From: a virus
Lineage: Duplodnaviria > Heunggongvirae > Uroviricota > Caudoviricetes
IMG/VR virus record: IMGVR_UViG_2623620502_000007
Direction: 5' to 3' (one strand)
Length of the DNA: 35,017 bases
A program made the position numbers and the translations under genes. The first letter of the stretch is position 1, and every line of letters starts with the position of its first letter. This document shows, piece by piece, positions 3,099-31,127 of the stretch. A model generated the notes under the pieces. That model made no database searches. It worked only from the letters and a program-made list of their open reading frames with translations, and was not told the DNA's origin.

Positions 3099-3577
3099 TA
3101 TCTCGCCCCCGTCATCCCCGTGAATCTGGTCGCCATACTGCCAGCCTTACCGATGAGCGATTCCGCCTGTTTACCGATATCGCCATAAAGCGCGGCCAGT
3201 GATTCATCAACGCGGGTGAGCGACAGCGTAAAATCAATTTTCCGGGGTGTGCCGTCTGCAAAGAAAATACTCCCTGTTTCACTCACCCTGCTGATGACAT
3301 ACATGCCGTAAATCATGCCGGTGCCATCCAGCAACGGCCACGCCCGGCCTTCCTCTGCCATCAGCCTGAGCGTGGTCATCGTCAGCTTCCCGCCGGTCAG
3401 TTCGGGATAAAGCACGCCGGCAAGCGTCATGTTTTCCTCACCCACACCGAGAAACTGAAAGGCATCCCGTTTACCGATACGGGAATTTGACGGCCAGCGA
3501 TAATCTGATTCGCGCTGCATGGTCTGGTGTGGCAGCGTCTGGCGCATAAAAACAAACATACCTAACGCGAGCATCAT
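3098..3577 (-). CDS. U: Tail protein gpU (159 aa)
   Basis: Synteny and length match P2 U; stop overlaps the D start. Confidence 0.85.
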   Translation of the reverse strand: MMLALGMFVFMRQTLPHQTMQRESDYRWPSNSRIGKRDAFQFLGVGEENMTLAGVLYPELTGGKLTMTTLRLMAEEGRAWPLLDGTGMIYGMYVISRVSETGSIFFADGTPRKIDFTLSLTRVDESLAALYGDIGKQAESLIGKAGSMATRFTGMTGAR

Positions 3578-3591
3578 TTTTCGTCACCTCC

Positions 3592-6039
3592 TTAACCGTC
3601 ATGCATCATGCTGGCACGGGCGCGCGCACGTTTATCCCGCTCGTATTTTTCGAGCGCATCCTGTAACTGGCGGTCGAGCTGAGTCCCCGGCGCAGTACCG
3701 CCCGTCAGACTGATGTGATATTCGTTTTTACTCTGGTCCACATAAGAGCGGCCAGCCGGTGCCGTAACCGGCTGATAAGCCTGATAGCCTGCATAAGAGC
3801 TGGTCGCCGGAATATAACCACCGGTGCCATACGTGGCGGCATGAGTTCTGGCGGCAGTCTGGTCAAGTGCGTCAGACTCTTTGTTGATAACACCGAGTTT
3901 TTCCAGTACCCAGTCAATACCACTGCGCAGTTTGTTGAACGCACTAAGCGGCAGCATCAACGCGTCAGCCAGTGCCTGCCCGAACATGACGCCCGTGTCA
4001 CGGCAACGATTCAGGGTGTCCTGGGTGGCTTTGACCGGAGCAATCAGGTTTTTAAACCACTGCCACGCGGCCTGTAACTTTTCACCCAGCCAGTCAAACA
4101 CCGGTTTAAGTGGCGTGAACAGTTCCCCCACCGGCGCAAATGCCGCTTTCAGCCCTTCCACCACACCGCCAAAGAATGCGCTGACAGGCTCCCAGTATTT
4201 ACGGATAAGCAACGCCCCGGCGACAATGGCGGCCACCACGGCCACAACCGGCCAGCTAATCGCCCCGATGGCCGTCATAACAGCACTGCCAACCGTCGTG
4301 AAGATTGCCCCCATTGCGCCTGCTGCCGCGATGATGGCATTGATGCCGGTGATAACCGGCCAGGCTACAAGACCAATGGCACCGATGATGCCAGTAAGTG
4401 CCAGCGCGCCACCGGCAATGAGGCCAATGGTTGACGCCAGTGATTTGTTTTTCTGGATCCAGCCGTCGAGTTTTAACACATACTTTGTGGCCGTCTGCGT
4501 GAGCTTACGCAGTGCGCCTTCCTGCTGGTCAAACAGGTCAGTCCCCACCGCCTCATAAGCGGACTGAAACTCCTTAAAGTCACCGCCGAGGTTGTCCTGC
4601 ATGATATTTACCAGCTCTGCGGTCTTCCCGTCTGAGGCTTTAAACGCAGCGGTCAGTTTGTCCAGCTTTCCGGTTGAGGCGGCAGTCATCAGCACAGCGG
4701 CGGCTGAGCTGGCCTCCTCCCCGAAAATGGTTTTCATGTATTCAGCCTGCTGGGCAGTACCGAGCCGGTTTTTCTCAAAACTGGCCTGCATTTCTTTCAG
4801 AATGGTAAATACTGGTCGGGTGTTTCCCTTGCTGTCTGAGGTTTTCACACCAAGCTCTTTCAGTGCATCCCATGCTTTTCCCGTCGGTGCCTGCAGGCGG
4901 CTTAACACGGCACGGCTTCCCGTCCCCGCCATTGAACCGGTAATTTTTGCGTCATGCAGCGCCCCGACCATTGCGGCGGTTTCTTCAATGCTGACACCGG
5001 CATTTTTTGCCACTGGTGCGGCATAGGTCAGCGCATCGCTCATACCGTCAAAATCGGCGGCGGTTTTGTTCATCGTCATGGAGAGAACATCCCCGATATG
5101 AGCGACCTTATCGTTTGAAAGCTGAAAGGCGGATTTCATCCCCATCAGCAGGGCGGCGTTTTCTTCCATCGTGCGGCGGTTCGCCAGCGCCATATTCAGC
5201 GTGACCGGCGTTGCCGCCTGAATGGCATCAACATCCCCACCGGCTTTCGCAATGATAATCTGCGCACCGGCAGCATCATCCGCCGAGGCGGCAGTATTGT
5301 CGCCGAGCTGGCGCGCCTGTTTGCGGAGCGCGGCCATTTCGGCGGAATCTTTTGCCACACCGAGCACAGCCTGCAATTCTGAGTTTTTCTGCGCAAACTC
5401 ATAACCGGGCATCAGCAGCTTAACTCCGGCCATCGTTCCCGCCGCCGCAATCCCCACACCGGCAGCGCCCACTGAGGCCATATTTCCGGCAAGTTCTTTT
5501 CCTGCCTGATAACGCTGTTTGACTGCGTTAAGTTTTGCCTGTTGTGCACTGACACGCGCCAGCGCGTCACGCTGCCGGTTAAGCTGTGCGGTGGTTTCAC
5601 TGATACGGTTTTTCAGCCCCTGCTCATCATGTGCAAGATTGCGGGTATTAATTCCCACAGCGGCCAGTTCCCGCTGCTGGCGTTTAACGGAATCCGTCAG
5701 GCGGTTATATTTCGCCTGTAAGTCCTCCGCCGCACGCTTTGCGGATTCCAGCACTTTCGCCTGAGCACGGGTCGGACGTTCAGTGTTTTTAAACTGTGTG
5801 GCAAGTGCTTCGGCCTCCTGCCGTGCCTTTTCAAGTGCATGACCAGTCACGGCGAGCTGTGCACTGGTCTTGCGAAACCCCTCAATACGGGATGCCTGAC
5901 CGTTCAGCTCGCGCAGTGATTTTTGTGTTTCCCGGATATCCCCCGACAGCGACTTACTCGCTGTGCGGATGGATTTAAACGGGCGGGATGCCTGGTCAAC
6001 AGCCCTGAGCAATACCTGTAATTTTACATTGTTACTCAT
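3592..6039 (-). CDS. T: Tail tape measure protein gpT (815 aa)
   Basis: Long Ala/Gly-rich coiled-coil N-terminal region and hydrophobic Gly/Ala-rich central segment typical of tape measure proteins; length equals P2 T; lies directly downstream of E/E'. Confidence 0.9.
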   Translation of the reverse strand: MSNNVKLQVLLRAVDQASRPFKSIRTASKSLSGDIRETQKSLRELNGQASRIEGFRKTSAQLAVTGHALEKARQEAEALATQFKNTERPTRAQAKVLESAKRAAEDLQAKYNRLTDSVKRQQRELAAVGINTRNLAHDEQGLKNRISETTAQLNRQRDALARVSAQQAKLNAVKQRYQAGKELAGNMASVGAAGVGIAAAGTMAGVKLLMPGYEFAQKNSELQAVLGVAKDSAEMAALRKQARQLGDNTAASADDAAGAQIIIAKAGGDVDAIQAATPVTLNMALANRRTMEENAALLMGMKSAFQLSNDKVAHIGDVLSMTMNKTAADFDGMSDALTYAAPVAKNAGVSIEETAAMVGALHDAKITGSMAGTGSRAVLSRLQAPTGKAWDALKELGVKTSDSKGNTRPVFTILKEMQASFEKNRLGTAQQAEYMKTIFGEEASSAAAVLMTAASTGKLDKLTAAFKASDGKTAELVNIMQDNLGGDFKEFQSAYEAVGTDLFDQQEGALRKLTQTATKYVLKLDGWIQKNKSLASTIGLIAGGALALTGIIGAIGLVAWPVITGINAIIAAAGAMGAIFTTVGSAVMTAIGAISWPVVAVVAAIVAGALLIRKYWEPVSAFFGGVVEGLKAAFAPVGELFTPLKPVFDWLGEKLQAAWQWFKNLIAPVKATQDTLNRCRDTGVMFGQALADALMLPLSAFNKLRSGIDWVLEKLGVINKESDALDQTAARTHAATYGTGGYIPATSSYAGYQAYQPVTAPAGRSYVDQSKNEYHISLTGGTAPGTQLDRQLQDALEKYERDKRARARASMMHDG

Positions 6040-6515: not shown

Positions 6516-7034
6516 TCACAGGCCGATATTGCGGCGGTGTTGCTCCAGCCGGTCGACGCCGTTCACCTTCTCAATCATGTTGATGGTGTCGATTTCGACC
6601 AGCTCCTTACCGTCCATCGTCAGCCGGAAATAGGTGCAGACCACGGAGATTTTCGACTCGGTGTCTTCTCCCTGTTTACCCTCGCCGGTGTCGATTTCTT
6701 TCTGACGTCCACGCATGACCACCTCGACGGCCACCGTTTCGCCGGTATCGTCACGCTGGTAAGAGCCTGCAAAACGAATCGGCACAGCATCCACACCGGT
6801 TGCGGCGTAAAGCTCCCAGATAACCGAATCCGGGAAGCCCCCGAGCGACCACTCCATTGACAGCGCATCGTCATCAAGGCCGAGGTCTACCGGTGCGCTG
6901 CCGTTCATTCCCGCACCGCGATAGTTTTCGAGCTTACGGGTCAGTTTTGGCAGCGTGACGGACTTTGCAACGCCCTGATAGCTGTAGCCGTTCAGAAAGA
7001 CGTTCATTAACTTGAGTTTGCGCGGCATTGCCAT
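6516..7034 (-). CDS. FII: Tail tube protein gpFII (172 aa)
   Basis: Synteny (between FI and E) and length match P2 FII. Confidence 0.88.
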   Translation of the reverse strand: MAMPRKLKLMNVFLNGYSYQGVAKSVTLPKLTRKLENYRGAGMNGSAPVDLGLDDDALSMEWSLGGFPDSVIWELYAATGVDAVPIRFAGSYQRDDTGETVAVEVVMRGRQKEIDTGEGKQGEDTESKISVVCTYFRLTMDGKELVEIDTINMIEKVNGVDRLEQHRRNIGL

Positions 7035-7046
7035 CGGTCAGGCTCC

Positions 7047-8237
7047 TTAATTGCTGTTAACCGAGGTGACCAGATTTGCCAGGTATTTATCGGTAATACG
7101 CTGGCGCAGGGTCAGGTTTTCGAGAGGAGGCACCGGTGTATAGTCGTAGTCGATATACAGTTTTCCGGCCTTGAGGGTTTCCGCATCGTTGGATTCTTCG
7201 CTGAACCAGCAGGTCGCATCCACGATATAGCCGTTTGTTTTCAGCTCTCGGAATTTGGCATTGATGCCATCAACGATGTCGCGAATCAGCGTTGCGGTGA
7301 TGGGCTTGTCCACCGCCCACATGTGCGCCTCAGCCATCGTGTCGGCCAGCACCTGCGCGGTGCGGGTGTAGTTTTCAAAGAGGAACAGCGGGTCATCAGA
7401 GCAGGTACGGTTACCCCAGAAGCGGAAACCGTCACGGCGAATCAGCGTTGTGACGCCTGACTCATTCAGCAGGTCAGCATCGGTGCCGGACTCCTGCAAA
7501 TCCCAGAATACAGATGCGCTGATGCCGGTAACACCGTTCACCCCAACGTTGGACAGTGTTTTATGCCAGCCCTGCTCCTGGTCGATTTTAGCGCGCAGAC
7601 CCAGCGCACGGGCGGTGGCATACGCGGTGGCGGTGGTACTGGTGACCGTATCCCATGCGAGGAAATCCGGCCAGATGACCATCAGCTCACGCTGGCTGAA
7701 ATTCTGGCGGTAGGCTTTCACCTCGGAAATGGTCTTACAGCCCCATGCGCTGATATATCCGAAAGCGCGCAGCTTCTGACAGACGGATGCCAGTGCAACA
7801 GCCACCTCTTTGGTGTCCAGTCCCGGCACACCGAGAATACGCGGTTTAACACCGGTTACCGACTCTGCCGCCAGCAGGGCTTTCAGTCCGGTGTACTGAC
7901 CGTTTTCGTCGGTGGTGCCGATGATATTGGAAACGGTCTGCGCAAGTTTCGTTTCTTCGTCGTCGCCGGTGCCGTCCTCCACGCGCACAACAACGGTAAC
8001 CGGTTTTGACTGGTCGGCGATGGCCTGCAACGATGCCGCCAGCGTGCCTTTTTTACCGGCCTTTGCAATTGCGCTCTGCACATTGGTAATCAGCACCGGT
8101 TTATTGATGGGGAAGGTTTCCGCATCCGCATCGCTGGCCGTGCAGACCATGCCGACAATGGCTGTGGATACGGTGGAAATGACGCGGGTGCCGTCGTTAA
8201 TCTCCAGCACCTGCACGCCGTGATGATAGTCACTCAT
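7047..8237 (-). CDS. FI: Contractile tail sheath protein gpFI (396 aa)
   Basis: Length identical to P2 FI; N-terminus MSDYHHGVQVLEINDGTRVISTVSTAIVGMV; first gene of the FI-FII-E-T-U-D operon. Confidence 0.9.
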   Translation of the reverse strand: MSDYHHGVQVLEINDGTRVISTVSTAIVGMVCTASDADAETFPINKPVLITNVQSAIAKAGKKGTLAASLQAIADQSKPVTVVVRVEDGTGDDEETKLAQTVSNIIGTTDENGQYTGLKALLAAESVTGVKPRILGVPGLDTKEVAVALASVCQKLRAFGYISAWGCKTISEVKAYRQNFSQRELMVIWPDFLAWDTVTSTTATAYATARALGLRAKIDQEQGWHKTLSNVGVNGVTGISASVFWDLQESGTDADLLNESGVTTLIRRDGFRFWGNRTCSDDPLFLFENYTRTAQVLADTMAEAHMWAVDKPITATLIRDIVDGINAKFRELKTNGYIVDATCWFSEESNDAETLKAGKLYIDYDYTPVPPLENLTLRQRITDKYLANLVTSVNSN

Positions 8238-8330
8238 CCGTTTAACTCCGTGGTTAATGGGTGCAACTATTTTCCGTTGGGTAGTACATGAGACGCTATT
8301 TGACCTGGCTGGTCAGTGGATGAAACAACA

Positions 8331-8360
8331 GATAAAGAAAAGGCGGGCAATCTGCCCGCC
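8331..8360 (-). terminator. Rho-independent terminator on the minus strand, between the cargo gene and FI
   Basis: Hairpin ggcgggca-atc-tgcccgcc (8342-8360) followed on the minus strand by TTTTCTTTATC. Confidence 0.6.
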
Positions 8361-8592
8361 TGTCCTGATTTGTACACACTCATTTTCCGACTGACAATTT
8401 ACATAGCCAAAATGCTATCAAATCTGACAGCCTGTTTTGAGCGAAGAGGAACCTGAGATTGTGGTATGCTAATTTATGGGGAGCAGGTCAATTGTATTAG
8501 TTATCTTTTTGCCTTTCTTTATCCCATTTCTTTACAGTGGTCTGATACCACTCTTCACGTGTTCGTTATTCCTCTGCTCTGTCACTTGAATT

Positions 8593-9189
8593 TTAGTTGT
8601 CTGTTTTAATTTTTTTGCTTCCCTGGGAAATCGGCCTCCAGTCTTCTCTAATATTTTTCATCTGCTCAGCTATCTGTGTCATTGGACTCCTTGCACCTAA
8701 GTAGCTAACCCCCTCGAAAGAAGCCATATCATAAGAATACTCATTCCGCTCTCTTTCAGTTGAGCCCGGCTGTTTAGACCAGCTAATACTAACAGAATAA
8801 ACTTGATCTTTAATCTGGTCATACTTACAAAGACTGCTGTTGAGGGAATGGCCGTTTTTCAATACGCTAACCTTGCTAAATGGTATACCTTTATTTTTTC
8901 TATGTTCTGCATTAACCAGTGGGGGATTAAATCCGACTTCAATATCATAGGCTGGGGCATTTCCGGTATTAGCAATATTGATATCAAAATAAAAAGCAGC
9001 CCAAGAATTTGGTTCAAGAGTCACAACGACATGAGGTTGAACTGATGCGTCAACCATCCTTTTTGTCTCGTCTGCTAATAGCCTTGTTACTCTCCACAAG
9101 AAAAATGTAGCAACTGCTGTTAGCAATGCTGCCAAAGCGGAGATAAGTGTACTTACTGTGTTTATATGCTCTGCGATAAATTCGATCAT
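8593..9189 (-). CDS. Hypothetical membrane-anchored protein (198 aa), cargo in the FI/G slot
   Basis: AT-rich ORF with a Shine-Dalgarno-like AAGGA upstream; predicted single N-terminal transmembrane helix (VSTLISALAALLTAVATFFLW) followed by a roughly 165-aa soluble domain; no family recognised by eye. Confidence 0.6.
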   Translation of the reverse strand: MIEFIAEHINTVSTLISALAALLTAVATFFLWRVTRLLADETKRMVDASVQPHVVVTLEPNSWAAFYFDINIANTGNAPAYDIEVGFNPPLVNAEHRKNKGIPFSKVSVLKNGHSLNSSLCKYDQIKDQVYSVSISWSKQPGSTERERNEYSYDMASFEGVSYLGARSPMTQIAEQMKNIREDWRPISQGSKKIKTDN

Positions 9190-9641
9190 GAGTTGTCCTT
9201 GGGGGCGTACTAATTGTTTTCAATACTAAAATAGCGCCGGGCTTGAAAAATTGCACACTTATGGTTCGATTTACCTCAACAGTTAAGGCTTCAACTTCCC
9301 CCATGCACCTCACCCAGCCCAAGACTGTATGAGGTCTGACAAAGAACTTCCTGACACTTGAAAACGAGGCAACGGCTAGGGTTTCTCGTAGGGCAAGGAT
9401 TGAATACGAAGCCTGTATATTGCTCCGCGAACGCTGCTGAGGGCAGTTTAAATGTTGGGCGTTTATGTAGCCTTTCACTCACCAGCATGAGTTCAATGTC
9501 TGTGAGTTACCGACAACAATATAAAGGGGGTGGCATCATCATATATCCAAGCTAGAGTCAAATCCTCTAACTGGTTTTATGATCAGTGTCAATTGTTTGA
9601 TTATTGAACGTTTACGAAGCAGCACGGGAGCCATATAACTA

Positions 9642-9860
9642 ATGGGCAGGTATAAGCCTGTATCACGAGGAATCAGTAAAATGGCTGATGATAAGACCAA
9701 AATCGGTACCCCTGACAATGATTTAATAAGTATCAAACAGGATTACGAGAGACGTGATTGGGCTGAAAAGTTTGGAGTTAGCGAGACCAAACTTGTTCAA
9801 GCCGTACAGGCTGTAGGTCATTCGGCTAAGAAAGTACAGGCATGGCTTAAAGACCATTAA
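9642..9860 (+). CDS. Small hypothetical protein (72 aa; 59 aa if started at the internal ATG 9681), possibly DUF3606-like
   Basis: ORF in the AT-rich cargo region; the internal ATG at 9681 has the better RBS (GAGG about 10 nt upstream); the motif DYERRDWAEKFGVSETKLVQAVQAVG resembles DUF3606-type small proteins from memory. Confidence 0.5.
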   Translation: MGRYKPVSRGISKMADDKTKIGTPDNDLISIKQDYERRDWAEKFGVSETKLVQAVQAVGHSAKKVQAWLKDH

Positions 9861-9912
9861 TATATGAGCGCCTTTCTAGGCGCTTTTTTCTTTGTCCTTT
9901 GGGGGATGATTT

Positions 9913-10191
9913 ATGGCTAATAATTTATTTATTACTTACGACCTCATTAAAACGAAAGATTATGCGGCTGTGTATGATGCAATTAAATCTTTAGGAAATT
10001 GGGCTTTAACAACTGAATCGAACTGGTATGTTAACTGTAGTTACTCTGCCGAGGATGCAGCCAAAATTGTGAGGGCGATCATGGATAGTGATGATAAGCT
10101 TATTGTTGTAGACGCAACCAATAACTCAGCTTATTGGTACAATCTCTCAGATGAAGTTAGTAACCAAATTCTGACTGAGTGGAACAAGTAA
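9913..10191 (+). CDS. Small hypothetical protein (92 aa), cargo in the FI/G slot
   Basis: Strong RBS (GGGGGA 7-9 nt upstream of ATG), AT-rich codon usage, followed by a hairpin terminator; no family recognised. Confidence 0.6.
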   Translation: MANNLFITYDLIKTKDYAAVYDAIKSLGNWALTTESNWYVNCSYSAEDAAKIVRAIMDSDDKLIVVDATNNSAYWYNLSDEVSNQILTEWNK

Positions 10192-10196
10192 TTAAA

Positions 10197-10220
10197 GGGG
10201 GTGGGTAGCCCCCTTTAATT
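10197..10220 (+). terminator. Weak rho-independent terminator after the 92-aa ORF
   Basis: ggggg-tgggtag-ccccc stem-loop followed by tttaatt. Confidence 0.5.
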
Positions 10221-10411
10221 CAGAAACCATCATGATTGAAACATTAAATATACTGGGTTAATTCTTTCATCCTTGCTCCCTTGCTATATGTCCTGAAAGC
10301 GTCCTTTTTAGCCTTCTGCTCAGTATGTCCGGTAATGGCACAGAGCGGACTGCCAGATTAGGCTTTACTCTGTGCCATAGATATGTAATCTCACACCAGA
10401 GCTTATACAAC

Positions 10412-10939
10412 TTATTGCGGCATTTCCGGCCATTCAGGATTTGCAGGATCCACACGACTGACCAGAACGCTGTAGCGTTCCCAAGCCTCCAGCCGTGTGC
10501 GCTCCTCCTCTGTTGCCATGTTCAGCCTGACAGCGCGCTCCAGCGGCAAAATCACGGATTCAGCATCTGCAAGAAGTCTGGCTTTCCGATTTTCTGCCTG
10601 CTGCTGCAATTCCTCTGCCGTATAAATGCGTTTAATCACTTTGCCGTCCTTAAACATCCAGTTCCCTGAAATGTCCGCCCGTCGGTTAGCAGTAATATCC
10701 GCCACTTCAACCACACTTAATCCATCCGGTCTGATAGCTGTCACATCCTTTTCCACATAGCGGATGATATTATCTTTGTCGTACGCTATTTTTATCGTGT
10801 CATCAGCAAAATACTTTTGTTCTTCGTACCAGTTCTTACCATCTTCTGTAAAAAACCAGACGACATCAAAGTTCTTTGTCAATTGATATTGTTCAACCGT
10901 TTTTGGATTACCTGCCGTTATATTTATCAAATGCTGCAT
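10412..10939 (-). CDS. G: Tail fibre assembly chaperone gpG (175 aa)
   Basis: Length equals P2 G; immediately downstream of H with a 3-nt gap. Confidence 0.85.
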
Positions 10940-10942
10940 AAA

Positions 10943-13153
10943 TTATACCTGCGCCACGTTGTACCATGTCCCGTTAATGTATTTCTGAACCGGTCTGTAA
11001 TATACGCCACCAATGTTATCGGCAGAGTTTGAGCCGGTATCCTGAACAATAATGCCGGTATATACACACCCGGACGGTGCCTGATGTGTCCATGTCATGC
11101 CATTGTTCGCAGGTTTGTATGTGGCGGCACCACCAAGTCGGATATCCCGGACATAGCGGGAGTCAAAATTGCTGAAATTTGATGGTATCACCTGCCCGGT
11201 AACCCGTAGTGCATCAGGCTTAAGCGTCATCAGATCTTTTGTTGTGCTGCCAGACCTGATGCGCCATTTAAAATATTCATTGCCATTATCACCAGTTTCA
11301 AACCACATGTATGAGTCAGAATCAGCATCTGAATCATTTTTAAATCCAATTTTCGCCCAGTCAGTGTTTCTTTCCCAAATCAGGAAGGCATCATTGATAA
11401 ATTTTATGCTGCCTGACATGCTTCCGCCTGATAATGCCAGAGCAAGAATATCCGCAGGTGTTGGCTTTCGTGATGTGGTATAAAACTCTGACCAGTCAGC
11501 CTCAAATCCATACCCATCACGTGCCGACCTGTAAAAAATCCCCCTGTTTTTATAATCCACAAGAAACTGCATTGCCGGACAACTTCCCTCACCCGTGTAA
11601 AAATGCAACACCATTTTTGATGCTCCGCCATCCTGTGCACAATAAGCACCACTGTCCCAGTTCCATCCTACCGCTTTATTATTTGCAACCGTATTTCCTG
11701 TTTTCCCTAATGCAAAAGCCGGTTGCTTATTTTTCGTATTGTAGTCGCGTCGCCAGCCCGGCGCATAATCAGCTCCGTGATTGATATACGTGAATTGCGC
11801 ACTGGTGGTACCACCACCGCTTGATGTACTCGGAGTGGTCACACGAATGGTCATTGCTGCTTTAACGCCCATAACCTCAATCACGCAACCTGCAAGATGA
11901 ATAGTCCCACAGTCAGTATCGGTAATAATTTTGTTATTACCATATGACCAGGAACACTTGCACATCCAGTAAGGATGATTAAAGGCTCCCTGAGACTCTA
12001 GCCAGTCAATAAACTGAGCGGTTGTCCAGTTTCCGGCTTCAGTGCTCAAAGCGCCGCTATAAGCACGACAGGCACCGATATTTTTCGTGAAGGTATCCTT
12101 TCCCGGAATATCCGCACCGTTCTGATCTTTCTGAAGACGTTTTTCAGCATTGTCATAGGCAGACCTCACCGCTTTTGGTGTTGCGGCCAGCGTTTCTGAA
12201 TCGCTGTTGGTGGCGCTACTGAGCTGGACAAGCCCTTTTCGCGCCGTGGTGGCATCCTGTGCGGTATATTTCCCGTTAGCGAGGTCATATGCTGCCTTTA
12301 CCGCCTTTGGCGTTGCCGCAAGCGTTTCAGAATCGCTGTTGGTGGCGCTACTGAGCTGAGCAAGCCCTTTTCGCGCTGTGGTGGCGTCCTGTGCAGTGTA
12401 TTTCCCGTTAGCAAGGTCATATGCTGTCTTTACTGCTTTTGGCGTTGCGGCGAGCGTTTCAGACGTGCTGTTAGTCGCACTACTGAGCTGAACAAGGCCT
12501 TTTCGCGCCGTGGTGGCATCCTGCGCAGTATATTTCCCGTTAGCAAGGTCATATGCGGCCTTTACCGCTTTCGGCGTTGCGGCCAGTGTTTCAGACGTGC
12601 TGTTGGTCGCACTGCTTAACTGAGTAAAACCTTTTGCGGTCAGCGAGGCGTCCGGGTGACGTCGTGACTGTTCGTGCTCTGCAATTTTGTCATCAACGTA
12701 ATCCTGCGTCGCCATCACCGTTGTGGTGTCAATGGTCAGCGCCACTGAGGCCACACTGCTGACGATGATGACCATGCGACAGGTCTGCGAACGCCCTGAG
12801 CCTTCGGCAAGAGCTGGCTTATAACTTTCGGCCATGTTCGCCACGGCAATTAATGTTCCCGCATCATCGTACAGGCCAAGCTCACGCATCCAGAAACCGC
12901 CCACCTCCGGCGGAATAACCAGCTCTGCGATAATATAATTACTGTTTCGTTTGTCCTGACTGATTTTGTTCAGCGCATGTCGCCAGACTTCGTGGATAAG
13001 CCCGGTCTGTCCGGCATCCGGGACAGGCAATTTACCACCGCCATCCCCGACGGCCATCGTGGTAATGTTGACCTTCCGCCCTCCCGGTGCGGTTGCCGCT
13101 GCCAGCTTTGCTGCACCGGCAGTGGTGATAACGGTTTTGAATTTTGTGCTCAT
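10943..13153 (-). CDS. H: Tail fibre protein gpH (736 aa) with internal tandem repeats and a divergent C-terminal receptor-binding region
   Basis: N-terminus MSTKFKTVITTAGAAKLAAA is typical of P2-family H; about 3.7 tandem copies of a 44-aa unit; C-terminal half is lower-GC and Cys-containing, unlike the N-terminal part. Confidence 0.88.
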   Translation of the reverse strand: MSTKFKTVITTAGAAKLAAATAPGGRKVNITTMAVGDGGGKLPVPDAGQTGLIHEVWRHALNKISQDKRNSNYIIAELVIPPEVGGFWMRELGLYDDAGTLIAVANMAESYKPALAEGSGRSQTCRMVIIVSSVASVALTIDTTTVMATQDYVDDKIAEHEQSRRHPDASLTAKGFTQLSSATNSTSETLAATPKAVKAAYDLANGKYTAQDATTARKGLVQLSSATNSTSETLAATPKAVKTAYDLANGKYTAQDATTARKGLAQLSSATNSDSETLAATPKAVKAAYDLANGKYTAQDATTARKGLVQLSSATNSDSETLAATPKAVRSAYDNAEKRLQKDQNGADIPGKDTFTKNIGACRAYSGALSTEAGNWTTAQFIDWLESQGAFNHPYWMCKCSWSYGNNKIITDTDCGTIHLAGCVIEVMGVKAAMTIRVTTPSTSSGGGTTSAQFTYINHGADYAPGWRRDYNTKNKQPAFALGKTGNTVANNKAVGWNWDSGAYCAQDGGASKMVLHFYTGEGSCPAMQFLVDYKNRGIFYRSARDGYGFEADWSEFYTTSRKPTPADILALALSGGSMSGSIKFINDAFLIWERNTDWAKIGFKNDSDADSDSYMWFETGDNGNEYFKWRIRSGSTTKDLMTLKPDALRVTGQVIPSNFSNFDSRYVRDIRLGGAATYKPANNGMTWTHQAPSGCVYTGIIVQDTGSNSADNIGGVYYRPVQKYINGTWYNVAQV
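12140..12634 (-). repeat. Intragenic tandem repeat in H: about 3.7 copies of a 132-nt (44-aa) unit
   Basis: Protein repeat KG[FL]xQLSSATNS[TD]SETLAATPKAVKxAYDLANGKYTAQDATTAR at aa 174-217, 218-261, 262-305 and a partial fourth copy; near-identical at nucleotide level. Confidence 0.85.
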
Positions 13154-22019: not shown

Positions 22020-23792
22020 ATGACCATCACCACAGACACCACTCTTTTACACGACCCGCGTCGTCAGGCGGCGCTGCTGTACTGGCAGGGGTTTTCCGTG
22101 CCGCAGATTGCCGCCATGTTGCAGATGAAACGCCCGACGGTGCAGAGCTGGAAACAGCGCGACGGCTGGGACAGCGTTGCCCCCATCAGCCGTGTCGAAA
22201 TGAGTCTGGAAGCGCGACTGACCCAGCTCATCATCAAACCGCAGAAAACCGGCGGTGACTTCAAGGAAATTGACCTGCTGGGACGCCAGATTGAACGACT
22301 GGCACGGGTAAACCGCTACAGTCAGACCGGCAACGAGGCAGACCTTAATCCGAACGTCGCTAACCGCAACAAAGGCGGGCGTCGCAAACCGAAAAAGAAT
22401 TTTTTCAGTGACGAGGCCATCGAAAAGCTGGAGCAGATTTTCTTTGAGCAGTCTTTCGAATATCAGTTGCACTGGTATCGCGCCGGGCTTGAGCACCGCA
22501 TCCGCGATATCCTGAAATCCCGCCAGATTGGCGCGACGTTTTATTTTTCCCGCGAGGCGCTGCTGCGCGCCCTGAAAACCGGTCATAACCAGATTTTTCT
22601 GTCGGCCAGTAAAACGCAGGCGTATGTGTTCCGCGAATACATCATCGCCTTTGCCCGTCTGGTTGACGTTGACCTGACCGGTGACCCGATTGTCCTGGGC
22701 AATAACGGCGCAAAACTGATTTTTCTCGGCACCAACTCCAACACCGCACAGAGCCATAACGGCGACCTGTACGTCGACGAGATTTTCTGGATCCCGAATT
22801 TTCAGGTACTGCGTAAGGTGGCATCAGGTATGGCCTCACAGAGTCACCTGCGTTCGACCTATTTCTCCACCCCGTCCACGCTGGCGCACGACGCCTACCC
22901 GTTCTGGTCAGGTGAACTGTTCAACCGGGGACGCGCCAGCGCCGCCGAACGCGTGGAAATCGACGTCAGTCATAACGCCCTTGCCGGTGGGCTTCTCTGT
23001 GCGGACGGCCAGTGGCGGCAGATTGTCACCATTGAGGACGCCCTGAAAGGTGGCTGCACGCTGTTCGACATTGAGCAGCTCAAACGTGAAAACAGCGCCG
23101 ACGATTTTAAAAACCTGTTCATGTGTGAATTTGTTGACGACAAGGCGTCGGTGTTCCCGTTCGAGGAGCTGCAACGCTGCATGGTCGACACGCTGGAAGA
23201 ATGGGAAGACTATGCGCCGTTTGCCGCGAATCCGTTCGGCTCCCGCCCGGTATGGATTGGTTACGACCCGTCACACCGTGGCGACAGCGCCGGATGCGTG
23301 GTGCTGGCACCGCCGGTGGTGGCCGGTGGCAAATTCAGAATACTTGAGCGTCACCAGTGGAAAGGCATGGACTTTGCCACTCAGGCGGAATCCATCCGCA
23401 AACTCACCGAAAAATACAACGTCGAATACATCGGTATTGATGCCACCGGCCTCGGTGTCGGCGTGTTCCAGCTCGTGCGCTCGTTCTATCCCGCCGCGCG
23501 CGATATCCGCTACACGCCGGAAATGAAAACCGCAATGGTGCTCAAGGCAAAAGACGTTATCCGCCGTGGCTGTCTGGAATATGACGTCAGCGCCACCGAC
23601 ATCACCAGCTCGTTTATGGCTATCCGCAAGACCATGACCAGCAGCGGACGCAGCGCCACCTATGAGGCCAGCCGCAGCGAGGAAGCCAGCCACGCCGACC
23701 TCGCCTGGGCAACCATGCACGCCCTGTTAAATGAGCCACTCACCGCCGGTATCAGCACTCCGCTGACATCCACCATTCTGGAGTTTTACTGA
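22020..23792 (+). CDS. P: Terminase large (ATPase) subunit gpP (590 aa)
   Basis: Start taken at MTITTDTTLLHDPRRQ to give 590 aa as in P2 P; the six-frame ORF begins 10 codons upstream. Confidence 0.88.
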   Translation: MTITTDTTLLHDPRRQAALLYWQGFSVPQIAAMLQMKRPTVQSWKQRDGWDSVAPISRVEMSLEARLTQLIIKPQKTGGDFKEIDLLGRQIERLARVNRYSQTGNEADLNPNVANRNKGGRRKPKKNFFSDEAIEKLEQIFFEQSFEYQLHWYRAGLEHRIRDILKSRQIGATFYFSREALLRALKTGHNQIFLSASKTQAYVFREYIIAFARLVDVDLTGDPIVLGNNGAKLIFLGTNSNTAQSHNGDLYVDEIFWIPNFQVLRKVASGMASQSHLRSTYFSTPSTLAHDAYPFWSGELFNRGRASAAERVEIDVSHNALAGGLLCADGQWRQIVTIEDALKGGCTLFDIEQLKRENSADDFKNLFMCEFVDDKASVFPFEELQRCMVDTLEEWEDYAPFAANPFGSRPVWIGYDPSHRGDSAGCVVLAPPVVAGGKFRILERHQWKGMDFATQAESIRKLTEKYNVEYIGIDATGLGVGVFQLVRSFYPAARDIRYTPEMKTAMVLKAKDVIRRGCLEYDVSATDITSSFMAIRKTMTSSGRSATYEASRSEEASHADLAWATMHALLNEPLTAGISTPLTSTILEFY

Positions 23793-24826
23793 TGAGCAAG
23801 AAAAAAGGGAAAACACCGCAACCTGAGGCAAAAAAAATGACCGCCAGCGCCCCGAAAATGGAGGCTTTCACCTTTGGTGAGCCGGTGCCGGTACTCGACC
23901 GCCGTGACATTCTGGATTACGTCGAGTGCATCAGTAACGGCAGATGGTATGAGCCGCCGATCAGCTTTACCGGTCTGGCGAAAAGCCTGCGTGCTGCCGT
24001 GCATCACAGCTCACCGATTTACGTTAAACGCAATATTCTGGCCTCGACATTTATCCCGCATCCGTGGCTTTCGCAACAGGATTTCAGCCGCTTTGTGCTG
24101 GATTTTCTGGTGTTCGGTAATGCGTTTCTGGAAAAGCGTTACAGCACCACCGGTAAGGTCATCAGACTGGAAACCTCACCGGCAAAATATACCCGCCGTG
24201 GCGTGGAGGAGGATGTTTACTGGTGGGTGCCGTCCTTCAACGAGCCGACAGCCTTCACGCCCGGCTCCGTGTTTCACCTGCTGGAGCCGGATATCAATCA
24301 GGAGCTGTACGGCCTGCCGGAATATCTCAGCGCCCTTAATTCTGCCTGGCTGAATGAATCAGCCACACTGTTCCGCCGCAAGTATTACGAAAACGGCGCT
24401 CATGCCGGATACATCATGTACGTCACTGATGCCGTGCAGGATCGCAACGATATCGAAATGCTTCGCGAAAACATGGTGAAGTCGAAAGGCCGCAACAACT
24501 TTAAAAATCTGTTTCTCTATGCCCCACAGGGGAAAGCCGACGGCATCAAAATTATCCCGCTCAGTGAAGTGGCAACGAAGGACGATTTTTTTAATATCAA
24601 AAAAGCCAGCGCCGCTGACCTGCTGGACGCGCACCGCATCCCCTTTCAGTTGATGGGCGGCAAGCCGGAGAACGTCGGGTCGCTGGGTGATATTGAGAAA
24701 GTGGCAAAGGTCTTTGTCCGCAATGAGCTTATCCCGCTACAGGACAGGATCCGCGAGATAAACGGCTGGCTCGGTCAGGAGGTCATCCGCTTTAAAAACT
24801 ACTCACTGGACACTGACAACGGCTGA
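23792..24826 (+). CDS. Q: Portal protein gpQ (344 aa)
   Basis: Length equals P2 Q; start overlaps the P stop (ATGA); reads toward cos. Confidence 0.9.
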   Translation: MSKKKGKTPQPEAKKMTASAPKMEAFTFGEPVPVLDRRDILDYVECISNGRWYEPPISFTGLAKSLRAAVHHSSPIYVKRNILASTFIPHPWLSQQDFSRFVLDFLVFGNAFLEKRYSTTGKVIRLETSPAKYTRRGVEEDVYWWVPSFNEPTAFTPGSVFHLLEPDINQELYGLPEYLSALNSAWLNESATLFRRKYYENGAHAGYIMYVTDAVQDRNDIEMLRENMVKSKGRNNFKNLFLYAPQGKADGIKIIPLSEVATKDDFFNIKKASAADLLDAHRIPFQLMGGKPENVGSLGDIEKVAKVFVRNELIPLQDRIREINGWLGQEVIRFKNYSLDTDNG

Positions 24827-25140: not shown

Positions 25141-26202
25141 CTACTTAGCCTTGATAACTGGATGAGCCCGGTCATGGCCCCCTCCCAAGAACTTTGAAAA
25201 AATCACCTTATCATTACTCACTGGTTTACTACCATACACACTATCGTAATGAAAAAATACTTGTGGTTGGTTTGGTATACGAATGAAACCATAAGCTAGT
25301 CTAGTATCACCTATTACTCCTTCTTCTCTATTACAAACCGGATAGCATAATTGACCACATAATGACACGAGCTCATCTGCAGTGGGGCGTTTAGAAGGGT
25401 CTAGATTTAAACATTTTTCAATTATATCTATAATTTCATTTGCCAGCGGAGCAAACTGCTTATTTGACTTAATAAAATCAGGATATTGAGTATGCTTTCC
25501 AGATAAGATGTTCGGAATAGCCATATACCCTAATCCAAAAGGATACTCTCCCGTGAGGATTCTGAACATCATCGCACCTAATGCCCAGACATCAGATGGT
25601 TTTGAAACTTGCCCCTGACTTTGTATAATTTCCGGGGCCATATATGGCAATGCCCCCATAGCTGTTTGAGATGAAGTAATCGATCCTTGCCCATTCTTTG
25701 CGGCCTCATCAATTTCATCACCGGCCATTTTTGAAATTCCAAAATCGGTGATTTTAACACCTGTAGCACTAACTCCTCCAATAACCATTATGTTAGAAGG
25801 TTTGAGGTCTCGATGTATTACATCCACATGATGGGAAGCCGAAAGAGCCTTCGCTAAGTTATGAAATATCTTTGCAGTCAAGTAAGGATCAACACTTGTA
25901 TAGCTACTCAACAATGCTTTATCCAGATCTACTCCATCGATAAATTCCTCCGTTAAAAATTCACGTCCATCTTCGGCAAAATAATCTAATGTTTTAGCGA
26001 CGTTAGGATGGTTGACCCTAGATGCTAAAATAGCACTTCTATGGAATCGTTTTTCAGCAGACTTATTTTTAGGGGTCTTAAGAGCAACTTGCCTATTTAA
26101 TATCTTATCATTCGCAAGGTAAACCTTTTGCATCCCCCCCTCACCAATTTCGCTGATAATAGTATAACGATTTATATTAGTCCCAGGAACCAACTCAATC
26201 AT
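25141..26202 (-). CDS. Hanks-type Ser/Thr protein kinase with C-terminal OB-fold-like extension (353 aa), third gene of the cargo operon
   Basis: Kinase motifs IGEGGMQKV (Gly-rich loop), VALK, HRDLKPSN, DFG, APE, DVWALG; start ATG overlaps the upstream kinase stop (ATGA) with GGAGG 7 nt upstream; AT-rich. Confidence 0.85.
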   Translation of the reverse strand: MIELVPGTNINRYTIISEIGEGGMQKVYLANDKILNRQVALKTPKNKSAEKRFHRSAILASRVNHPNVAKTLDYFAEDGREFLTEEFIDGVDLDKALLSSYTSVDPYLTAKIFHNLAKALSASHHVDVIHRDLKPSNIMVIGGVSATGVKITDFGISKMAGDEIDEAAKNGQGSITSSQTAMGALPYMAPEIIQSQGQVSKPSDVWALGAMMFRILTGEYPFGLGYMAIPNILSGKHTQYPDFIKSNKQFAPLANEIIDIIEKCLNLDPSKRPTADELVSLCGQLCYPVCNREEGVIGDTRLAYGFIRIPNQPQVFFHYDSVYGSKPVSNDKVIFSKFLGGGHDRAHPVIKAK

Positions 26203-27263
26203 AACACAACCTCCGGATGAGAAAGATCAAATGTGATAAATATACGTTTTGTAGTTGTTCTTCCGGCAGGGCCAAGTATTATCACGCATGAGCTAGGCAA
26301 TAAATTTCGTTTTTTAGCCCTAATATTATTAACATAGACATCCCCTGATATATCTGAAATATAAAACTCGGAACCAGAGTAAGTAATTTCCACACTACCC
26401 ACCCCTGGATTGTTATAAGACTCCGTCTTGTGTGTAGCTGAGAGCACTACTGGTTTTTTATTATCAGATATAAGCAATGCTCGATGAGAGTTGTGCAATA
26501 ATATTTTTTTCAAAACATCGCAAACATCTTTCATAGGGGGCCTAGCTTGAGGATTTGCATCAAGACATTTGAAAAACAATTCCTTTACAATACTTGGTAA
26601 TTTTATTACCGACAAATCAAATGGATTAGATGTCAGAATCTTAGGGTAACGGGTCAATTCATCTGGGACAGGGGTTTTAGCTAAGCACATTGCTGTAACA
26701 GCAAAGGCATATGTATCAATTGCTTTAGTAAAGTCTACGTTCTGCAAATACAACTCAGGAGCTGCAAAAATTGGGGTACCTTTAAACCCAATTGTTTTTG
26801 CATTATCTATTTTTCTTGACAAGCCAAAATCATATATTTTTACAAGCCCTTCTTTATCAATCTTCATATTCCCAGGCTTTATATCACGATGAATGATATC
26901 ATGTTCATGTATCTCGCAAATACCTGATGCTATTTGCCACAAAATCTTAATAAGCTCCCCTACTGTAGTAATTTTATTATTAACTTCATTCAACGATGGA
27001 CCATCGATAAACTCTTCAACAATTGCAAGATTGCCTTCAGCATAATTAATCACATCAAACAGTTCAACAACATGTTTTGAACGTAGTGTCATTAGAGCAG
27101 CCAACTCGTCTTTCATTCGCTCTGTATCTGATGGATCATTTATAGTCTTTATTGCAACAAATCTCTCAAGATGAGAATCGCGGCATTTGATTACACTACC
27201 AAATCCCCCTAAATCAGGATCCCCAACCACTTGATATCTTTCTGGGAGAAAATCACTCATCAT
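26199..27263 (-). CDS. Hanks-type Ser/Thr protein kinase with uncharacterised C-terminal domain (about 354 aa), second gene of the cargo operon
   Basis: Motifs LGGFGSV, VAIK, HRDIKPGN, DFG, APE; start taken at the ATG preceded by AAGGAG with 6-nt spacing (the six-frame ORF begins 2 codons upstream at 27269); overlaps the phosphatase stop. Confidence 0.85.
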   Translation of the reverse strand: MMSDFLPERYQVVGDPDLGGFGSVIKCRDSHLERFVAIKTINDPSDTERMKDELAALMTLRSKHVVELFDVINYAEGNLAIVEEFIDGPSLNEVNNKITTVGELIKILWQIASGICEIHEHDIIHRDIKPGNMKIDKEGLVKIYDFGLSRKIDNAKTIGFKGTPIFAAPELYLQNVDFTKAIDTYAFAVTAMCLAKTPVPDELTRYPKILTSNPFDLSVIKLPSIVKELFFKCLDANPQARPPMKDVCDVLKKILLHNSHRALLISDNKKPVVLSATHKTESYNNPGVGSVEITYSGSEFYISDISGDVYVNNIRAKKRNLLPSSCVIILGPAGRTTTKRIFITFDLSHPEVVL

Positions 27264-28449
27264 CACCATCTCCTTTTATTGAATTCCTTTCAAGGAATGA
27301 CATGTCAAGCTGTGAAATACAATCAAGTCTATTATTTTTATTTAACCCATTTTTTTTCTCATCTAATTCCTGAAGAGATTTATTCTTATTTTTTGTTCTT
27401 GCCTTTCTTTTTGTTGTTGCTTTGTTTATATCGCTAACGACTGAATCAGTATTTTTTTTGTTTGACACTTTTCTAACACCAGAAGTGCCTTTATTATTTT
27501 TTTCAAGCTCAACTGTATTTAAAGGCTCTAATGAAGATGACTTATTCGGCACGCTAATGACTTTTAATTCACCAAATGGATCCCAGAGATTTATTACATC
27601 TCCAGATGAAACATCTAACTCTTTTAGAGTATTAAAAAGGTCTATAACTGCTATACTTGCATTGTCGAAACCACCAAACCAACTAGCAAGATCAATAACC
27701 CGCCTAGAATAAACACCTAGATTCGCCGAGTGCACATATAACTTTCTTAAATTATCCTTACCGATAGAATGCGCACCATCAGAACTTAAAATAATTACGC
27801 CACTCTCCAAGGCTTGGATATGATGAAAGTGTATTTCCAATGTGCCATCTATGCCTATAAATTGTACTAATTCACCACCAAAGCGTAAATCAATATCCTG
27901 TGGATCCATATTTAGATGATTATTATACTTTTTGGCTAAGGCAACTAAAGTATCGTCCTCGCTCAACTGAGTAGTTTCTTCATGCGAGACATAATAAATA
28001 CGGCTATCACCTACATTTACTGCGGTAATATTATCATCATCTTCTAAAGCTATCGCTGATAATGTCGCCCCTCCATTACCCTTATATACATTCAAAACAG
28101 AATCATTCGCTTGTAGCACAGCTTTCTCAAGACAAGAACGTATTGGTAAATGAGAATTTCTTATTATTTCAGTAAAAAATGTAGATAAAGTTAAAGATGC
28201 TGCATTGGCACCCCCCTCCATCCCCCCCATACCATCGGCTAACGCAACAACAACGATATCTTTAGCTTTGCTACTTGGGCGGAATTTCAATATAGCAACC
28301 CTATCTTGGTTTTCCTTCCGTACCAACCCAATGTCAGTAGCTATAGCCACTGGTAAGGTTGAGACACGACGCACTGAGGATGCTATATTTTTTCGATGTA
28401 GCCATCCGTGAATATGCTCATGAAGGATTTCGTAAGAATCACGGCTCAC
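27253..28449 (-). CDS. PP2C (PPM) family Ser/Thr phosphatase with Lys/Asn-rich C-terminal tail (398 aa), first gene of the cargo operon
   Basis: PP2C signature motifs ENQDR, ALADGMGG, VGDSR, SSDGAH, DNAS; GTG start 4 nt after AGGAGG (an in-frame ATG one base upstream runs straight into TGA); AT-rich. Confidence 0.82.
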   Translation of the reverse strand: MSRDSYEILHEHIHGWLHRKNIASSVRRVSTLPVAIATDIGLVRKENQDRVAILKFRPSSKAKDIVVVALADGMGGMEGGANAASLTLSTFFTEIIRNSHLPIRSCLEKAVLQANDSVLNVYKGNGGATLSAIALEDDDNITAVNVGDSRIYYVSHEETTQLSEDDTLVALAKKYNNHLNMDPQDIDLRFGGELVQFIGIDGTLEIHFHHIQALESGVIILSSDGAHSIGKDNLRKLYVHSANLGVYSRRVIDLASWFGGFDNASIAVIDLFNTLKELDVSSGDVINLWDPFGELKVISVPNKSSSLEPLNTVELEKNNKGTSGVRKVSNKKNTDSVVSDINKATTKRKARTKNKNKSLQELDEKKNGLNKNNRLDCISQLDMSFLERNSIKGDGDDE

Positions 28450-30862: not shown

Positions 30863-31127
30863 ATGAGCCAAAAACCTCTGAACAACGCTTGCTGAGTTGC
30901 TCAACCTGCGCGTTTAAATCAGCAAAAGACTTTGCGCTTCCGGTCAGAATATCGTGATGCATCAGGCCGGAAACGAGCTGGCTTAATTTCGGGTAATAAC
31001 CAACCACCGACAGCCATTCCTGACCGGCGTTTTTACCGCTTTCCGCTCTCTTTTTCTCGTGGAGAATAAACTGAAAGCTGTCACTGGTAACGACATAACG
31101 TTCGCCAATTTCAATACGAATACTCAT
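30852..31127 (-). CDS. Hypothetical early-region protein (91 aa)
   Basis: Sits between the TraR-like gene and A in the early operon, the position of the small orf80-83 genes of P2; overlaps neighbours at both ends. Confidence 0.6.
   Translation of the reverse strand: MSIRIEIGERYVVTSDSFQFILHEKKRAESGKNAGQEWLSVVGYYPKLSQLVSGLMHHDILTGSAKSFADLNAQVEQLSKRCSEVFGSYGR

Follow-up and report, generated by a model that had tools for sequence, protein, structure and literature searches.

The Z/fun gene of coliphage P2 blocks phage T5, and T4 Imm, P22 SieA, and lactococcal Sie2009 are each single-gene membrane proteins of superinfection exclusion or abortive infection. In P2-like phages, the interval between the tail-fiber assembly gene G and the sheath gene FI, known as the Z/fun locus, is a documented hotspot of accessory and defense genes (PMC13586616; bioRxiv 10.1101/2024.10.15.618418; PMC6823313), and BPSL1038 has been described as a stand-alone DNase of the Cas2/VapD type that has a D11(X20)SST site and, at its C-terminus, an additional helix (PMC10491678). 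Here, we analyzed the cargo of the Z/fun slot in the P2-like prophage record IMGVR_UViG_2623620502_000007 (35,017 nt, hereafter the window), which comprises a membrane-protein gene (DUF8453) and, divergent from it, a small operon encoding a DUF3606 protein and a 92-aa protein. We consider it fairly probable that this cargo is a mosaic of two independently mobile accessory units with putative roles as conflict genes; the bulk of that confidence belongs to the structural and evolutionary part, and any specific function is proposed only tentatively.

The window cargo occupies the same slot, with the same joints, as P2 Z/fun, P2-EC53 ORF1, and the morons of phage R18C, and like them consists of AT-rich foreign DNA. 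P2's own Z/fun protein bears no resemblance to any of the three window proteins, and whereas Z/fun has a phenotype in the T5 block, none is on record for the window cargo. The island itself is real but was already on record, first as GenBank entry AJ512682 ("Bacteriophage P2-EC53 proviral Z-region, ORF1"; 98.7% identical, with the ORF annotated as a "putative lysogenic conversion protein") and then, in 2019, in the plaque-forming P2-like phage R18C (interval 99.1% identical). We take AJ512682 to stem from the work of Nilsson et al. 2004; in comparison with its ORF1, the window allele is truncated. The R18C paper lists two small open reading frames (ORFs), one of them DUF3606, as morons with function not known (PMC6823313), and in the literature we found no paper on DUF8453, the WP accessions, or the PHROG ids, with DUF3606 appearing only in the R18C note.

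The cargo boundaries were mapped by comparing the window with P2 (NC_070904) and P2_2H1, both of which carry other cargo. Backbone identity (94–96%) extends from FI to 8448/8450 and restarts at 10336/10339, and the cargo is therefore delimited as 8449–10338. Pfam matches on the flanking ORFs and the RefSeq annotation of identical loci place it between G and FI, that is, in the P2-like Z/fun slot, and the guanine-cytosine (GC) content falls to 0.39–0.45 over ~8200–10400, compared with 0.53–0.59 in FI and the genes to its left. The features of the interval and its two flanking genes are as follows:

7047–8237, minus strand: sheath gene FI (Pfam Phage_sheath)
8238–8448, minus strand: P2 backbone from FI to the cargo joint, 211 bp upstream of FI, 94–96% identical to P2/P2_2H1
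8341–8361, minus strand: intrinsic terminator with a 9-bp stem, 7 GC pairs, and a T-run (terminator scan and inverted-repeat search)
8449–10338: variable Z/fun cargo, ~1.89 kb, GC ~0.40, set by the backbone break-points
8497–8592, minus strand: remnant of the last 32 DUF8453 codons, detached by Y199* and with a second stop, Q208*
8593–9189, minus strand: truncated 198-aa allele of DUF8453/phrog_11802 (PHROG E 7e-123; name from RefSeq entries of other strains)
9190–9569: non-coding spacer between the divergent units, the presumed site of the DUF8453 promoter
9570–9639, plus strand: putative regulatory region with a palindrome and putative −35/−10 elements
9681–9860, plus strand: DUF3606 protein, 59 aa (RefSeq start, GAGGAA ribosome-binding site; Pfam PF12244; phrog_10779, E 2e-38)
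9866–9895, plus strand: intrinsic terminator/attenuator between the DUF3606 and 92-aa genes, hairpin 9866–9885 plus T-run (terminator scan)
9913–10191, plus strand: 92-aa protein, Cas2/BPSL1038-like ferredoxin fold, phrog_1090
10190–10220: perfect 12-bp inverted repeat, AATTAAAGGGGG/CCCCCTTTAATT (inverted-repeat and terminator scans)
10244–10339, minus strand: 3′-terminal relic of a DUF6538-type tyrosine integrase gene (tblastn)
10339–10411, minus strand: P2 backbone downstream of G, 73 bp, by identity to P2/P2_2H1
10412–10939, minus strand: tail-fiber assembly gene G (Pfam Caudo_TAP)

An earlier note, made from the letters of this DNA alone, had described a low-GC insertion filling the whole FI–G interval (8238–10411) in the Z/fun slot, with a 198-aa single-pass membrane protein followed by its own terminator, a DUF3606-like protein of 59–72 aa, and a 92-aa protein with a terminator behind it, none of them recognizable as a known defense protein. 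The slot, the low GC content, and all three ORFs were borne out (8593–9189 on the minus strand, 198 aa; 9642/9681–9860 and 9913–10191 on the plus strand, the latter 92 aa), as were the DUF3606 assignment (best read as 59 aa), the hairpin after the 92-aa gene, and the lack of a significant match among known defense proteins. A single insertion spanning the whole interval is not what the comparison with P2-like phages gives, as backbone lies on both sides of a shorter cargo, and the hairpin credited to the membrane gene sits within the left-hand stretch of that backbone. The 198-aa frame is likewise present, with one predicted transmembrane segment, but its full-length form encodes 230 aa, and the window allele is truncated.

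The 211 bp of backbone upstream of FI presumably also hold the P2 late F promoter. The terminator region within them is common to phages with different cargo, and on that comparison the hairpin is a backbone element that would act on leftward transcripts coming from the cargo or from G. At the right cargo joint lies a further hairpin (10337–10375; 9-bp stem, GGCACAGAG-N21-CTCTGTGCC), kept in P2 and P2_2H1, which is not an obvious terminator because it has no T-run and which overlaps the "left inverted repeat" annotated in AJ512682. The left and right "inverted repeats" of that entry fall on the conserved backbone joints and have no detectable mutual complementarity in the window, where the best local alignment covers 9 bp and no long pair is found.

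The three genes are not linked outside this block. DUF8453 occurs as a single gene beside integrases in Xanthomonas and Klebsiella, among unrelated neighbors, and also in a P4-like satellite, and neither of the other two genes accompanies it at any of these sites; genes of 88 and 95 aa found upstream of it in Klebsiella and Xanthomonas were considered as partners and are unrelated to the window genes. Among 41 species-representative loci of the 92-aa gene, DUF3606 or DUF8453 lies within 5 kb only in Pantoea leporis, which holds the same island, and no other neighbor family is shared among these loci; DUF3606 is missing next to the 92-aa gene in 39 of the 40 other species. Three arrangements are seen in E. 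coli beside DUF6538-type integrases: a promoter followed by DUF3606 and the 92-aa gene (loci L004–L008), the same promoter straight before the 92-aa gene without DUF3606 (E. coli 90-1), and an unrelated 42-aa basic peptide before the 92-aa gene. Conversely, DUF3606 loci in Yersinia ruckeri and Burkholderiales lack the 92-aa gene; in Yersinia ruckeri, a 234-aa gene lies upstream of DUF3606 and was also rejected as a partner, being unrelated to the window genes. Even the DUF3606/92-aa pair is recombinant, since relative to L004 the window DUF3606 protein is 95% identical and the 92-aa protein only 76%.

The two halves of the cargo also differ in origin. DNA homology to the donor-type element represented by E. 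coli loci L004 and L008 covers window positions 9570–10339, comprising the operon, its terminator, and ~100 bp of a convergent integrase gene. The translation of 10244–10339 is 64% identical to residues 351–392 of the L004 integrase (E 3e-15), and from this relic together with the extent of the DNA homology we conclude that a different integrative element supplied the small operon, from its integrase end. The donor-type element is small and carries a capsid gene (Phage_cap_E). At other E. coli loci (L062–L065 and L075, ~1.5–5.3 kb of each), homologs of the 92-aa gene are located at the integrase-bearing end of a small integrative element that also encodes a Phage_cap_E major capsid protein, a protein of 614 aa, and a divergent Ser/Ala-rich protein of 82 aa; this element may be a capsid-encoding satellite.

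The whole cargo recurs, at 94% identity, in a non-P2 chromosomal site of P. leporis (L017, NZ_JALMEU010000002, 3209–5428), where it adjoins a split tyrosine recombinase and the bud (acetoin) operon and has a 312-bp insertion at window position ~9416. Its ends correspond to window positions 8438 and 10342, at most 10 bp from the P2 joints, and this coincidence, a single example, points to recombination at short shared sequences. The P. leporis and P2 joints have GAGCGAAGAG in common on the left side and TGGCACA on the right. In E. coli, the 2,174-bp interval is present at 99–100% identity in 99 of 5,426 complete genomes, with flank matches in 1,029 genomes and cargo matches in only those 99.

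The small plus-strand operon is preceded by a palindrome, ACTGGT-N6-A(T/C)CAGT (9570–9587, one mismatch in the window), and by putative −35 (TTTACG, 9611–9616) and −10 (TATAAC, 9634–9639) elements separated by a 17-nt spacer. The window, E. coli L004, and P. leporis all share these elements without change, and in E. coli 90-1 the region is 91% identical and directly precedes the 92-aa gene, a pattern from which we infer promoter function. The DUF3606 protein covers model positions 1–54 of 54 of PF12244 (64.3 bits vs. a cut-off of 24.3). Its C-terminal half is rich in helices, and it may bind the palindrome as a small regulator, the sole support for DNA binding being a weak HTH_19 match (E 0.15). 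The hairpin between the two genes is kept in three genomic contexts, in which the loop varies and one stem position changes from A-T to G-T in L004; the 92-aa gene would thus be expressed via read-through and at a lower level. The inverted repeat at 10190–10220 is likely a bidirectional terminator, one that in the donor-type element would be common to the convergent integrase gene. No Rfam family was found in the 490-bp spacer between the divergent units, and an ORF at 9050–9478 (142 aa) was dismissed as spurious, having no homology support in the Pfam or PADLOC scans.

The 92-aa protein, the member of the cargo that gains a structural assignment here, was modeled as a ferredoxin fold with a mean predicted local distance difference test score (pLDDT) of 94. 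Its top PDB matches in Foldseek were BPSL1038 (7vxr) and many Cas2 chains (TM-score 0.58–0.68, E 0.01–0.05). As in BPSL1038, an extra C-terminal helix is present, and an Asp at the end of strand beta1 (D10) and a Thr-Glu-Ser turn (residues 34–36) are possible counterparts of the D11(X20)SST site. It differs from the Cas2/VapD/BPSL1038 nucleases (PDB 5dlj_E, 7vxr) in the absence of a significant sequence match and in an Asp-to-Ser/Thr spacing of 23–25 rather than 20 residues. The Pfam Cas2 model (PF09827) scored 13.8 bits, below its gathering threshold of 23.8; among 48 homologs, 22 gave sub-threshold but colinear Cas2 matches (best E 0.0057) and 27 matched DUF3884. PDB sequence searches with the small proteins, by single sequence and by profile, returned chance matches only, and neither Cas2 nor 7vxr was retrieved by profile. 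Across 128 divergent representatives, the best-conserved positions are D61 (97%), G28, and I24, and position 32, a Leu in the window protein, is Lys, Arg, or His in 75% of the family.

This family is large. At E ≤ 1e-3, it comprises 2,411 clusters defined at 50% identity, mostly stand-alone proteins of ~92 aa from many phyla, and homologs remain ~45–60% identical across distant phyla. Two tandem 92-aa domains occur at residues ~365–540 of P0302, a 1,507-aa metagenomic Baseplate_J-like protein with CBM_5_12; this is the only annotated fusion of the domain and is uninformative. Several tandem-duplicated proteins of 230–260 aa were also noted.

The membrane-protein gene in its intact form, as in RefSeq strains and R18C, spans 693 nt and encodes a 230-aa "DUF8453 domain-containing protein". 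The window allele differs by TAT>TAA at codon 199 (Y199*), CAA>TAA at codon 208 (Q208*), and K179N, and its product aligns to positions 1–198 of the 230 in the phrog_11802 profile, short of full length. By sequence, it is a member of DUF8453 by descent, in the form of a truncated allele. An AlphaFold2 model (pLDDT 84) contains an N-terminal helix (2–49), a seven-strand Ig-like beta-sandwich (54–154), and helices at 169–188 and 201–229. Hydropathy indicates one transmembrane segment at residues ~12–32, and with no positive charges before it and four after it, the protein is predicted to be N-out/C-in with a cytoplasmic sandwich. The truncation takes away helix 201–229 with its invariant D203 and R204, and as the two premature stops delete this conserved C-terminal helix, the window protein is probably impaired. 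A probe of 131 bp across the altered stretch assigned 10 of the 99 E. coli copies to the window allele and 83 to the identity band of the intact allele.

The phrog_11802 family numbers 234 matches, reaching Xanthomonas and Sphingomonadaceae at 44–50% identity with a conserved architecture; Pfam searches on 42 DUF8453 homologs gave stray CARDB, DUF11, and DUF7507 matches only. Damage to the gene has recurred. The P. leporis copy has an independent nonsense mutation at codon 202 (S202*), and in a 71%-identical copy from E. coli P4-like satellites (L058–L061, gene 5001–5627), the N-terminal transmembrane anchor is replaced by an insertion sequence (IS) junction. The protein may be costly or simply dispensable. 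Y199* (8593–8595) and S202* lie three codons apart, and each deletes exactly the C-terminal helix and leaves the downstream frame largely intact, a pattern that could reflect either selection or chance. The satellite copy sits between a P4-type primase and the IS, convergent with an AbiJ_NTD4 gene, and the IS-truncated form recurs widely in E. coli databases, where its clusters reach 225 sequences.

All three genes have many homologs and, judged from their substitution patterns, are under purifying selection. The ratio of non-synonymous to synonymous substitution rates (dN/dS) of DUF3606 against L004 is 0.05, and for the 92-aa gene and DUF8453 non-synonymous divergence is 0.15–0.2 with synonymous sites saturated. 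No known defense signature was found in the cargo: scanning of all ORFs with PADLOC-DB v2.0.0 gave no significant match (no hit at all for DUF8453; best E-values for the small proteins 0.024–0.025, with Cas2 models and PDC-M03B), NCBIfam returned nothing, and PHROGs gave only families without an assigned function.

Location in the hotspot makes a defense or exclusion role plausible. Under the mosaic reading, both units would be lysogen-expressed moron or conflict genes, a proposal we make with low confidence. In the first unit, intact DUF8453 would be an exclusion factor, or one of the abortive-infection type, working on the cytoplasmic side of the inner membrane, and it would resemble T4 Imm, P22 SieA, and Sie2009 in being a small single-pass inner-membrane protein and, in its setting, a lysogenic-conversion gene in a prophage hotspot. 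In the second, the internal terminator would limit read-through from DUF3606 into the 92-aa gene, whose product, the constant member of the operon and able to occur alone, might cleave or bind nucleic acid as a dimeric Cas2/BPSL1038-like protein without need of DUF3606. A further-reaching reading, with the 92-aa family a new single-gene conflict factor, DUF3606 an optional regulator, and DUF8453 a new membrane-anchored exclusion protein, is possible but doubtful.

The neighborhood of the 92-aa gene suggests variable or defense-island contexts, as the 140 nearest neighbors (four per locus, 40 species), counted without a matched background, include type II, IIG, and III restriction-modification genes, ThsA with TIR, E1-E2/ThiF, CapP, and RmrA, along with mobile-element genes (integrases, resolvases, TniB). 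No Cas family is among the 25 commonest Pfam/PADLOC families of these neighbors, and the neighbors in the window are FI and G. Several observations weigh against this interpretation of the cargo, the missing background among them. Housekeeping genes (ribonucleotide reductase, ETF) also occur among the 140 neighbors. The residue D10 is acidic in only ~84% of the 128 representatives, and since it is thus not invariant in the wider family, a nuclease is possible but not established. A sigma-70 scan found no strong consensus in the spacer, the single weak site lying within a coding region. Finally, 99 E. coli genomes and Pantoea retain the three genes as a set with hardly any change, which could mean joint function and not recent common descent.

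That last point also speaks for a development of what the earlier note had proposed from a membrane protein plus small soluble partners, namely a single abortive-infection or superinfection-exclusion module whose membrane effector would be controlled by the two small proteins. The block is co-inherited with the same ends in the 99 E. coli genomes and R18C (99–100%) and in P. leporis (94%), lies in a defense hotspot, and has its units divergent around a shared spacer. Such a module is nevertheless improbable, given that the genes do not co-occur beyond this one block and that its halves have separate histories (donor homology only from 9570, the 312-bp P. leporis insertion at 9416). Moreover, DUF8453, truncated here, has been hit by nonsense mutations in 10 of the 99 copies and, independently, in P. 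leporis, whereas both small genes have remained intact, and PADLOC matches are absent. The same nonsense mutations, the IS-truncated satellite copies, the integrase relic, and the failure of the sigma-70 scan to find clear promoters would also suit decaying hitch-hiker DNA without current function. The strength of purifying selection, seen for DUF3606 and, over deep divergence, for the other two genes, makes this quite unlikely too, as do the conserved regulatory and terminator elements, the 83 of 99 E. coli copies in the intact-allele band, and the retention of the island by plaque-forming R18C (PMC6823313).

Two further explanations concern the small operon. A VapXD-like type II toxin-antitoxin pair, serving prophage stabilization or abortive infection, would share with VapXD an operon, carried by a mobile element, in which a small gene precedes one for a Cas2/VapD-fold protein. 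The order and sizes of the genes agree with this, the conserved palindrome ahead of the transcription unit could serve as an autoregulatory operator, the internal terminator would yield the upstream protein in excess, the 92-aa fold resembles Cas2/VapD/BPSL1038, and the varied upstream partners (DUF3606, the 42-aa peptide, DUF2188-like proteins) could represent antitoxin shuffling. Linkage in VapXD fashion is, however, not obligate here, as the 92-aa gene is alone in most species and directly behind the promoter in E. coli 90-1, and DUF3606 occurs without it; the genes do not overlap, being separated by 52 nt that include a terminator. The Asp proposed as catalytic varies in the wider family, Leu32 departs from the Lys/Arg/His of most of the family, and, within the reach of our tests, the upstream partner shows no relationship to VapX, so that we think such a pair unlikely. 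We rate as very improbable an anti-defense role for the 92-aa protein, for example as a Cas2 mimic that poisons Cas1-Cas2 spacer acquisition and so protects its mobile element. The Cas2-like fold without cas genes nearby, the occurrence as a small single gene next to integrases at mobile-element ends, and membership in a PHROG phage family are what it would predict. Identity of ~45–60% across distant phyla is unusual in anti-defense proteins, though, the C-terminal helix is a feature that solved Cas2 structures are without (PMC10491678), and contact with Cas1 is hypothetical. In chromosomal islands, the gene is often found next to those for restriction-modification, Thoeris, and E1-E2 systems, a setting that fits defense or regulation at least equally. 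We therefore retain the mosaic of two separately mobile units as the favored account of the cargo.

Adjacency misleads at this locus, where units that move separately have recombined into one island, and the integrase relic and shared ends document a concrete case of cargo swap among another element's integrase end, a Pantoea chromosomal islet, and a P2 hotspot. The locus alone adds little, Z/fun being a textbook P2 hotspot and the exact cargo already in GenBank; the 92-aa protein, as a large stand-alone family without known function, is most worth following. If the proposed roles were true, this family would be either a minimal nucleic-acid-targeting defense or a Cas2 mimic blocking CRISPR spacer acquisition, its genes would constitute single-gene cargo at integrase ends and in hotspots of phages, satellites, and defense islands, and the recurrent loss of the DUF8453 C-terminal helix would reflect selection against a costly activity. 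For defense assays, the window DUF8453 allele is a poor choice, and the intact 230-aa allele is available in R18C and in strain 36C_1_fosA3.

The main P2 hotspot, the old/tin slot (25141–28449, minus strand), lies between portal gene Q (23792–24826) and gpA (28580–30904) and contains two tandem Ser/Thr protein kinase genes together with a PP2C-like phosphatase gene. The kinases match the PADLOC PD-T4-6 and mad6 models (E 1e-54 to 2e-59), and by these matches the slot holds recognizable defense-type cargo, unlike the Z/fun slot. Throughout the window, the late genes lie on the minus strand, and those surrounding the FI–G interval include:

3592–6039: tape-measure gene
6516–7034: tube gene
10943–13153: fiber gene H

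The low-GC tract does not end with the island but runs on rightwards (10400–12000, GC 0.41–0.49) through G and the 3′ half of H. G is 94% identical to its P2_2H1 counterpart but only 85% identical to that of P2, and this tract and these identities fit an exchange of the host-range cassette adjoining the cargo slot.

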